Source of the DNA: Escherichia phage A6-6
DNA: 64,000 nucleotides
Sequence record: PQ510734.1
Reading direction: 5' to 3' (one strand)
Shown here one piece after another: positions 7,551 through 7,962 of the stretch. Positions within the stretch are counted from its first letter, which is position 1. Each line of letters starts with the position of its first letter. Below the pieces are notes generated by a model that made no database searches, was not told where the DNA came from, and saw only the letters and a program-made list of their open reading frames with translations. The translations under genes were made by a program, and so were the position numbers.

Positions 7551-7570
7551 AATAACGCGTGGCGGAAAAT

Positions 7571-7918
7571 ATGAATTTTAATTATTACCCTATTCTATTA
7601 GAAAAAGACGCGAAACAGCCAAAATGGCAAGGTCCTCAGTTTATTAAAGGTGTCTATCAATTAGTAGTTCCTAAAGACAAGATTTATAGCAGTTGTTTCA
7701 CTGAATCCGCTTGCAGTATTTTCGGTAATAGTTCTCCGTATTGGAATTTTGACATAAAGCTGGATAGAAATATCGATATTTGGTTGAAAGCTATGGATAT
7801 TGGTAATATTACGTTTGATGAGAATAATTATCATATTATTGGTCGCTTTTCCAAACGTGGTAAAGAATTATATTTCACACCTGAAATTGAGAGAAAATTT
7901 GTTGCTAAACCGTATTGA
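7571..7918 (+). CDS. Hypothetical protein inserted between frd and td
   Basis: 115 aa from ATG 7571 (ORF track 7559 is GTG); no recognisable motif. Confidence 0.5.
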   Translation: MNFNYYPILLEKDAKQPKWQGPQFIKGVYQLVVPKDKIYSSCFTESACSIFGNSSPYWNFDIKLDRNIDIWLKAMDIGNITFDENNYHIIGRFSKRGKELYFTPEIERKFVAKPY

Positions 7919-7962
7919 TTATTAGCTTCATAAAATGTATTATAATTTATATAAGGTACTAA

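Follow-up and report, generated by a model that had tools for sequence, protein, structure and literature searches.

The gene between frd and td in Escherichia phage A6-6 and the compact frd/td junction of phage T4

The genes frd (dihydrofolate reductase) and td (thymidylate synthase) are directly joined in phage T4 and separated by a further gene in Escherichia phage A6-6; has the latter phage acquired something, or has T4 lost it? We addressed this question in a stretch of 64,000 nucleotides of the A6-6 record PQ510734.1, a Tequatrovirus segment that we call the window and to which all coordinates refer unless another locus is named. In the window frd stops at 7550 and td starts at 7963, and the gap of 412 bp between them (7551-7962) contains one open reading frame (ORF), termed here ORF-A, that encodes 115 amino acids from the ATG at 7571, i.e. 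from the start chosen in the T2 and T6 annotations, or 119 amino acids if read from a GTG at 7559. In the T4 genome (NC_000866, minus strand) frd spans 145109-145690 and td starts at 145112, so the two genes share a 4-bp ATGA overlap that leaves no ORF-A homologue at this position. A preliminary description of the locus had given the gap, the ORF and the T4 overlap correctly, and had interpreted ORF-A as an insertion at a hot spot of mobile DNA. The explanation that we consider best, with a probability of roughly 0.7, is a different one: ORF-A is a real and long-resident gene that encodes an accessory binding protein, and the T4 junction arose by deletion.

ORF-A as a gene of the frd-td interval

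ORF-A (7571-7918) is a genuine protein-coding gene under purifying selection. It differs from its T2 copy by 13 synonymous and 1 non-synonymous changes, which corresponds to a ratio of non-synonymous to synonymous substitution rates (dN/dS) of 0.015; the ratio is 0.05 against the copy of Mosigvirus Shf125875 and 0.115 against a metagenomic relative of 62% identity. The GC content at third codon positions (GC3) is 0.267, as compared to 0.265-0.273 in frd, td and nrdA, and the codon-usage score is frame-specific and equals that of the same three genes. The preliminary description had also reckoned with an ORF that has no homologues, but a tblastn search found one in 554 phage records. One might still regard ORF-A as spurious or decaying, i.e. 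as a non-coding spacer that is open by chance, since it contains no known domain and T4 manages without it. This reading is refuted by the purifying selection described above (dN/dS 0.015-0.05 in the closer comparisons); in addition, the frame-specific codon signal is as strong as in the adjoining genes, the family retains invariant residues even between members of about 20% identity, and the AlphaFold model is a confident one. We give it practically no chance.

The distribution of the gene was determined in the INPHARED phage collection, where 529 records with a Tequatrovirus-type frd served as the total. ORF-A is present at more than 90% protein identity in about 362 records, T2, T6, RB14, RB18 and RB32 among them, and about 135 records have an unrelated ORF of 68 amino acids, termed ORF-C, in the same slot between frd and td. 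The contiguous T4-type junction, counted with a 38-mer that is able to match the uninterrupted junction only, is found in exactly 32 records (T4 and its laboratory variants, RB55, RB59, HY03, SG1, G28, F1, FN, JEP6, FL12, FL18, vB_EcoM_112 and G2133), and the three classes sum to 529. ORF-A is thus the majority state in Tequatrovirus while T4 and its close kin are the exception, and the comparison with T-even and RB-series genomes that had been proposed earlier separates T2, T6, RB14, RB18 and RB32, which carry the supposed insert, from T4, RB55 and RB59, which do not.

Outside Tequatrovirus the gene occupies the same place. Homologues with 29-45% identity lie directly 3' of frd and 5' of td in Kanagawavirus, Jiaodavirus, Marfavirus and Moonvirus, in Gelderlandvirus and Winklervirus, and in five metagenomic T4-like contigs, and a member of the family was present between frd and td in every related locus that we inspected (about 10 further T4-like lineages, more than 15 loci). 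Most of these loci contain a second ORF between the first homologue and td, one contig even a third, and the second and third ORFs belong to the same family according to hmmsearch (1e-12 to 1e-33). One of the paralogues, termed B, is set apart by an insertion of about 20 residues. From frd onwards the usual order is A, then in some cases B, then in some cases further small ORFs with C occasionally among them, and finally td. Neighbouring stops and starts often overlap; in other genera this applies to the frd stop and a family member at one end, and to the final ORF and the td start at the other. When 1.84 billion representative proteins were scanned exhaustively with HMMER, only 38 family clusters at 50% identity were obtained, all of them about 95-150 amino acids long. 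The family is confined to T4-like phages, in which one, two or three paralogues stand in tandem between frd and td, the first of them immediately behind frd.

Cross-genus identities are 29-45% for ORF-A, 46-50% for Frd and 71-80% for Td, and the divergence of ORF-A tracks that of Frd. The proposed insertion is not borne out by these data, i.e. by the occurrence in about 362 of 529 records, the synteny in about 10 more lineages and the native composition; to judge from the sequences, ORF-A is a long-standing resident between frd and td and not a recent arrival. The metagenomic relative whose A protein is 62% identical to that of the window has the order A-B-C, and therefore the alleles seen in Tequatrovirus (A only, C only or none) look like different reductions of a fuller cassette, as this comparison suggests.

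Several details of the family are worth recording. The contig with three tandem paralogues is SRR28387184_149 (L019), in which they follow frd at 2562-3605 and have 148, 106 and 95 amino acids; two other compared loci (L016 and L017) have two paralogues each. T4-like phages thus have anywhere from 0 to 3 copies of the family. No paralogue of ORF-A was found elsewhere in the 64,000-nucleotide window. Two apparent relatives were set aside: P0037, a repetitive Ig-like protein of 899 amino acids whose 8 matched stretches are spurious, and P0012 (195 amino acids, OR941409.1, L022 3001-3588), in which the C-terminal 35 residues of an ORF-A of the Jiaodavirus type are attached to about 160 unrelated ones. 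The record around P0012 is rearranged or fragmented (td and nrdA are in pieces and small genes are duplicated), and the protein is probably the product of a rearranged or misassembled genome rather than a natural fusion.

ORF-C (MSNKLKVKDVP...) overlaps its neighbours on both sides, the stop of frd (as ATGA) and the start of td, for example in the EcNP1 locus (2079-2285), and further copies were seen in four of the compared loci (L007, L009, L005 3148-3354 and L013 4670-4879). In Marfavirus and in one metagenomic relative it is the last ORF before td (79-85% identity), and homologues with 43% identity are found in Phapecoctavirus, which is not T4-like. Searches of ORF-C against Pfam, NCBIfam and PADLOC gave no match.

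Could ORF-A nevertheless be recently inserted mobile DNA, or a degenerate homing endonuclease gene at a recombination hot spot? The junction is polymorphic for presence and absence, it lies near the site of the td intron, it has three alternative alleles, a 9-bp direct repeat flanks the insert, and some BASEL and ValerieMcCarty records label the product a putative homing endonuclease. On the other hand, none of the 36 family members contains a GIY-YIG, HNH, LAGLIDADG or PD-(D/E)xK domain, no D, E or H is conserved, and a protein of 115 amino acids offers no DNA-binding module. GC3 and codon usage are native, purifying selection is strong, and the synteny extends over at least 10 lineages with a divergence like that of Frd. 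No transposase, integrase or homing endonuclease is present in or beside the insert, which holds only the 115-residue ORF and a 44-bp spacer. Nor does the proximity of the td intron, which the preliminary description had taken as a sign of a hot spot, help the argument, as the presence of the intron is uncoupled from that of ORF-A: T6 has both ORF-A and the I-TevI intron in td, T2 and the window have ORF-A and an uninterrupted td, and T4 has the intron and no ORF-A. We therefore consider a mobile origin of this kind very unlikely. The homing endonuclease label itself (MZ501050, MZ501066 and MZ501113 of BASEL, OR271596 of ValerieMcCarty04) is unsupported by the sequence, profile and structure analyses, and it may spread by annotation transfer.

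Origin of the T4 junction

The 9-bp sequence TAAATGAAA is found at the frd stop of the ORF-A allele and again at the td start (Table 1). Removing one copy together with the intervening DNA, 416 bp altogether, yields the T4 junction TATATAAATGAAACAATACC exactly. We infer from this that the ATGA overlap of frd and td in T4 and its closest relatives is a derived state, produced most simply by a microhomology deletion of 416 bp between the 9-bp repeats. The preliminary suggestion of a small accessory gene can be kept in part, as ORF-A is a real gene that T4 does not have and that phages can do without; what has to be given up is that it was inserted.

Several points weigh against this reconstruction. 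Mosigvirus phiC120 shares the ATGA overlap, and the empty state must therefore be old or have a repeated origin. ORF-A could also have re-entered Tequatrovirus by homologous recombination; frd and ORF-A can move between genera, as is shown by Mosigvirus Shf125875. The repeat is ambiguous as well: it is equally a substrate or footprint of a microhomology deletion and a possible target-site duplication, which it could be in principle, and repeats of 9-12 nucleotides are common in this AT-rich DNA, with seven families in 901 bp.

Two comparisons suggest exchange at this locus, one between genera and one within Tequatrovirus. In Shigella phage Shf125875, a Mosigvirus, Frd and ORF-A (locus 894-1848) are 87% and 93% identical to those of the window, as compared to 60% for the Frd of phiC120, and the frd-A segment looks like an intergeneric replacement by recombination; in this phage frd runs into ORF-A by 11 nucleotides and td is not preceded by the promoter-like spacer. 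Within Tequatrovirus, the window and T2 (T2 locus 3394-4254) share only 86% identity in Td, as opposed to 96% in Frd and 99% in ORF-A. This difference suggests that recombination had a breakpoint at ORF-A or immediately behind it, and that the td alleles of the genus are mosaic. The whole frd-td stretch of the window is 98.5% identical to that of Yersinia phage phiD1, RB18 and others.

The choice of reference matters here. With T4 as the yardstick, a gene of T2, T6 and about two thirds of the sequenced tequatroviruses looks like an insertion, which is misleading.

The ORF-A protein and its possible roles

The gene lies in the early cluster of nucleotide metabolism, and its predicted protein has a mass of 13.6 kDa and a pI of 8.8. 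It matches PHROG 1928 with an E-value of 1.8e-35 (residues 4-110 against profile positions 2-124 of 126) and is 97-99% identical to the annotated homologues of T2, T6 and the RB phages. Four residues (W19, G91, K95 and G97) are invariant throughout the family and five more (Q16, G27, Y29, F93 and F102) are nearly so, while no D, E or H is conserved across the family alignment, i.e. there is no acidic or histidine catalytic set. For this reason binding, and not catalysis, is the most likely mode of action of ORF-A, and it is probably a non-enzymatic binding protein.

The absence of a recognisable motif, noted in the preliminary description, was confirmed by database searches. ORF-A, paralogue B and 36 family members gave no match to Pfam, NCBIfam or PADLOC apart from scattered, single chance matches to Pfam (E <= 1), and sequence and profile searches of the PDB returned best E-values of 0.1-0.2 (dynein, TagH) that we take as chance. 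AlphaFold2, run with a 36-sequence alignment, predicts seven strands and one helix with a mean confidence (predicted local distance difference test, pLDDT) of 91.2 and a predicted template modelling score (pTM) of 0.84; a shallower alignment gave the same topology with a pLDDT of 81. A Foldseek search against BFVD retrieved uncharacterised proteins of T4-like phages only, hhalign detected no relationship of the family to DUF7247, to the frd.2-like ORF or to NrdA.2 (probability under 2%), and characterised anti-defence inhibitors with solved structures showed no similarity to ORF-A in sequence or fold. Literature searches on PHROG 1928, RB32ORF229c and related phage topics produced no functional data.

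About a third of the tequatroviruses, as well as Mosigvirus phiC120, keep frd and td without ORF-A, so the gene is dispensable and hence accessory. Its transcription is probably shared with frd and td, in the early or middle class of genes; it has its own Shine-Dalgarno (SD) sequence, and td retains a separate one. We speculate that the protein would bind a host protein as a dispensable factor of the host-takeover or counter-defence type. This host-directed role is our first choice, albeit a tentative one that we hold to be somewhat less than an even bet; the dispensability, a copy number that varies between 0 and 3 and the absence of a requirement for Frd or Td speak for it. It has to be weighed against three observations. 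The constant placement between frd and td, together with the stop/start overlaps in other genera, would also be compatible with a function in the metabolism of thymidylate or folate; weak structural matches to the oligonucleotide/oligosaccharide-binding (OB) fold would fit nucleic-acid binding; and the strong purifying selection within Tequatrovirus is unlike that of a fast-evolving arms-race gene.

The first of these observations leads to the possibility that ORF-A, with paralogue B where present, binds Frd and/or Td and serves the thymidylate/folate branch of the phage as an adaptor or accessory subunit. It could for instance be a tether in the complex that synthesises deoxynucleoside triphosphates, a non-covalent analogue of the bifunctional dihydrofolate reductase-thymidylate synthase. 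All family members examined lie between frd and td (more than 15 loci, at least 10 lineages), the overlaps with the frd stop and the td start suggest translational coupling, and the absence of catalytic residues fits a scaffold. Yet T4 and its clade, the tequatroviruses with ORF-C (together about 32% of the records) and Mosigvirus phiC120 keep frd and td alone, and phages differ in the number of family members that they carry (0 to 3); for these reasons ORF-A would not be an obligate partner of either enzyme. Moreover, frd.1, frd.3 and DUF7247 of the same cluster are equally syntenic, and therefore a conserved position is by itself a weak sign of a functional link. Such an adaptor seems rather unlikely to us, though it comes second in our ranking. 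The bolder version, in which the A/B family is an unrecognised partner with a new fold dedicated to the phage dihydrofolate reductase and thymidylate synthase, e.g. a tether or a regulator of the frd-td message, strikes us as improbable.

The third candidate is a small OB-like protein that binds single-stranded DNA or mRNA, acting for example on the translation or stability of the frd-td message, in replication or in recombination; its closest known counterparts would be the OB-fold domains S1, Teb1/Cdc13 and HIN, which bind single-stranded DNA or RNA. The protein is basic, and its invariant residues W and K, like the nearly invariant Y and F, are of the kinds typically seen on surfaces that bind nucleic acids, but neither sequence nor profile searches matched it to an OB or S1 family, and no Rfam element lies nearby. 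We place this candidate third and think it has a small chance of being right; the host-directed binder remains the preferred, if tentative, function.

Locus layout and comparison with known systems

The features of the interval are collected in Table 1.

Table 1. Features of the frd-td interval in the window of Escherichia phage A6-6
Feature	Position	Strand	Remarks
frd (dihydrofolate reductase)	6969-7550	+	193 amino acids; upstream anchor gene; from the ORF list and the match to annotated frd
Left copy of the 9-bp direct repeat TAAATGAAA	7544-7552	+	Covers the final frd codons and the stop; repeat family D4
Spacer between frd and ORF-A	7551-7570	+	SD-like GGCGGA at 7561-7566; alternative GTG start at 7559; read from the sequence
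ORF-A	7571-7918	+	115 amino acids from ATG; member of the RB32ORF229c / PHROG 1928 family ("frd-td interval protein")
Spacer between ORF-A and td	7919-7962	+	44 bp, 16% GC; promoter-like TTGATT-17-TATTAT / TATAAT (7915-7946); td SD AAGG at 7953-7956
Right copy of the 9-bp direct repeat TAAATGAAA	7960-7968	+	Covers the td start codon
td (thymidylate synthase)	7963-8823	+	286 amino acids, intronless; downstream anchor gene; from the ORF list and the match to annotated td

The promoter-like TATAAT and the SD sequence that had been pointed out before td are indeed there, the former at 7941-7946, but a promoter scan found 20 sigma-70-like matches in the region as compared to 16.9 +/- 5.1 in shuffled sequence. 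The matches do not exceed the shuffled level, and the TATAAT element is therefore not evidence of a promoter. A predicted promoter is annotated in the spacer between ORF-A and td in the related record Lutter, as a prediction only. The arrangement AGCTTCA-N10-TATAAT bears only a loose likeness to a T4 middle promoter, and we claim no promoter here. An Rfam scan of 6500-9000 gave chance matches below the threshold only and no element near ORF-A.

Small ORFs that T4 lacks are also found upstream. Between frd.1 (6115-6357, DUF5417) and frd the window has a DUF7247 protein of 119 amino acids (6368-6727, RB51ORF237-like) and an ORF of 85 amino acids without family (6712-6969, RB32ORF231c-like), whereas in T4 frd directly follows frd.1. 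T6 has both ORFs and T2 only the 85-residue one, and the pattern of T4 as a reduced genome may thus hold for the frd.1-frd gap as well. Downstream, the nrdA.2-like ORF (8820-9083, DUF5496) and the nrdA.1-like ORF (9037-9363, DUF4326) overlap by 47 nucleotides in different frames, as they do in T4, which is ordinary for this cluster.

Hundreds of records already list ORF-A as a hypothetical protein, and the new points are modest: the T4 junction as a deletion, the array of paralogues between frd and td, and the polymorphism of the junction with its three alleles. ORF-A is one more conserved small early gene, and it would matter more only if it turned out to be a true partner of Frd or Td or a new counter-defence factor. 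For annotators, the array of one to three paralogues, the three junction alleles and the unsupported homing endonuclease label may be useful.

How does ORF-A compare with systems that are already known? Firstly, the hypothetical proteins of the RB32ORF229c / PHROG 1928 family in T2, T6, RB14, RB18 and RB32 are the same gene, 97-99% identical and at the same position in the frd-td interval, with no difference that we could find; that this family has no Pfam entry, gene name or assigned function is probably due to its absence from the reference T4. Secondly, paralogue B (for example QEA10724 of Enterobacter phage IME523 and YP_009203973 of Citrobacter phage Merlin) was assigned to the family of ORF-A in profile searches (1e-19 to 1e-27) and shares with ORF-A the C-terminal GRFxKxGxxxxF hairpin and the tandem place in the interval. 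It differs by the insertion of about 20 residues, which follows the QxxW motif (APTIxxYKxNP...), and it is absent from the window and from all Tequatrovirus records examined. Thirdly, frd.1, frd.2 and frd.3 of T4 (DUF5417, PF03197, PF05798), which lie in the cluster between gene 32 and frd, are likewise small, syntenic early genes inherited vertically across T4-like genera; they are present in T4 and hence have Pfam families, whereas ORF-A is absent from T4. Finally, the free-standing homing endonucleases of T-even phages (the seg and mob genes and I-TevI) resemble ORF-A in that they lie between or inside genes of nucleotide metabolism and are polymorphic among T-even phages. The likeness ends there, as ORF-A has no catalytic domain, reaches at most half their size, keeps its place across genera and resembles its neighbours in composition.
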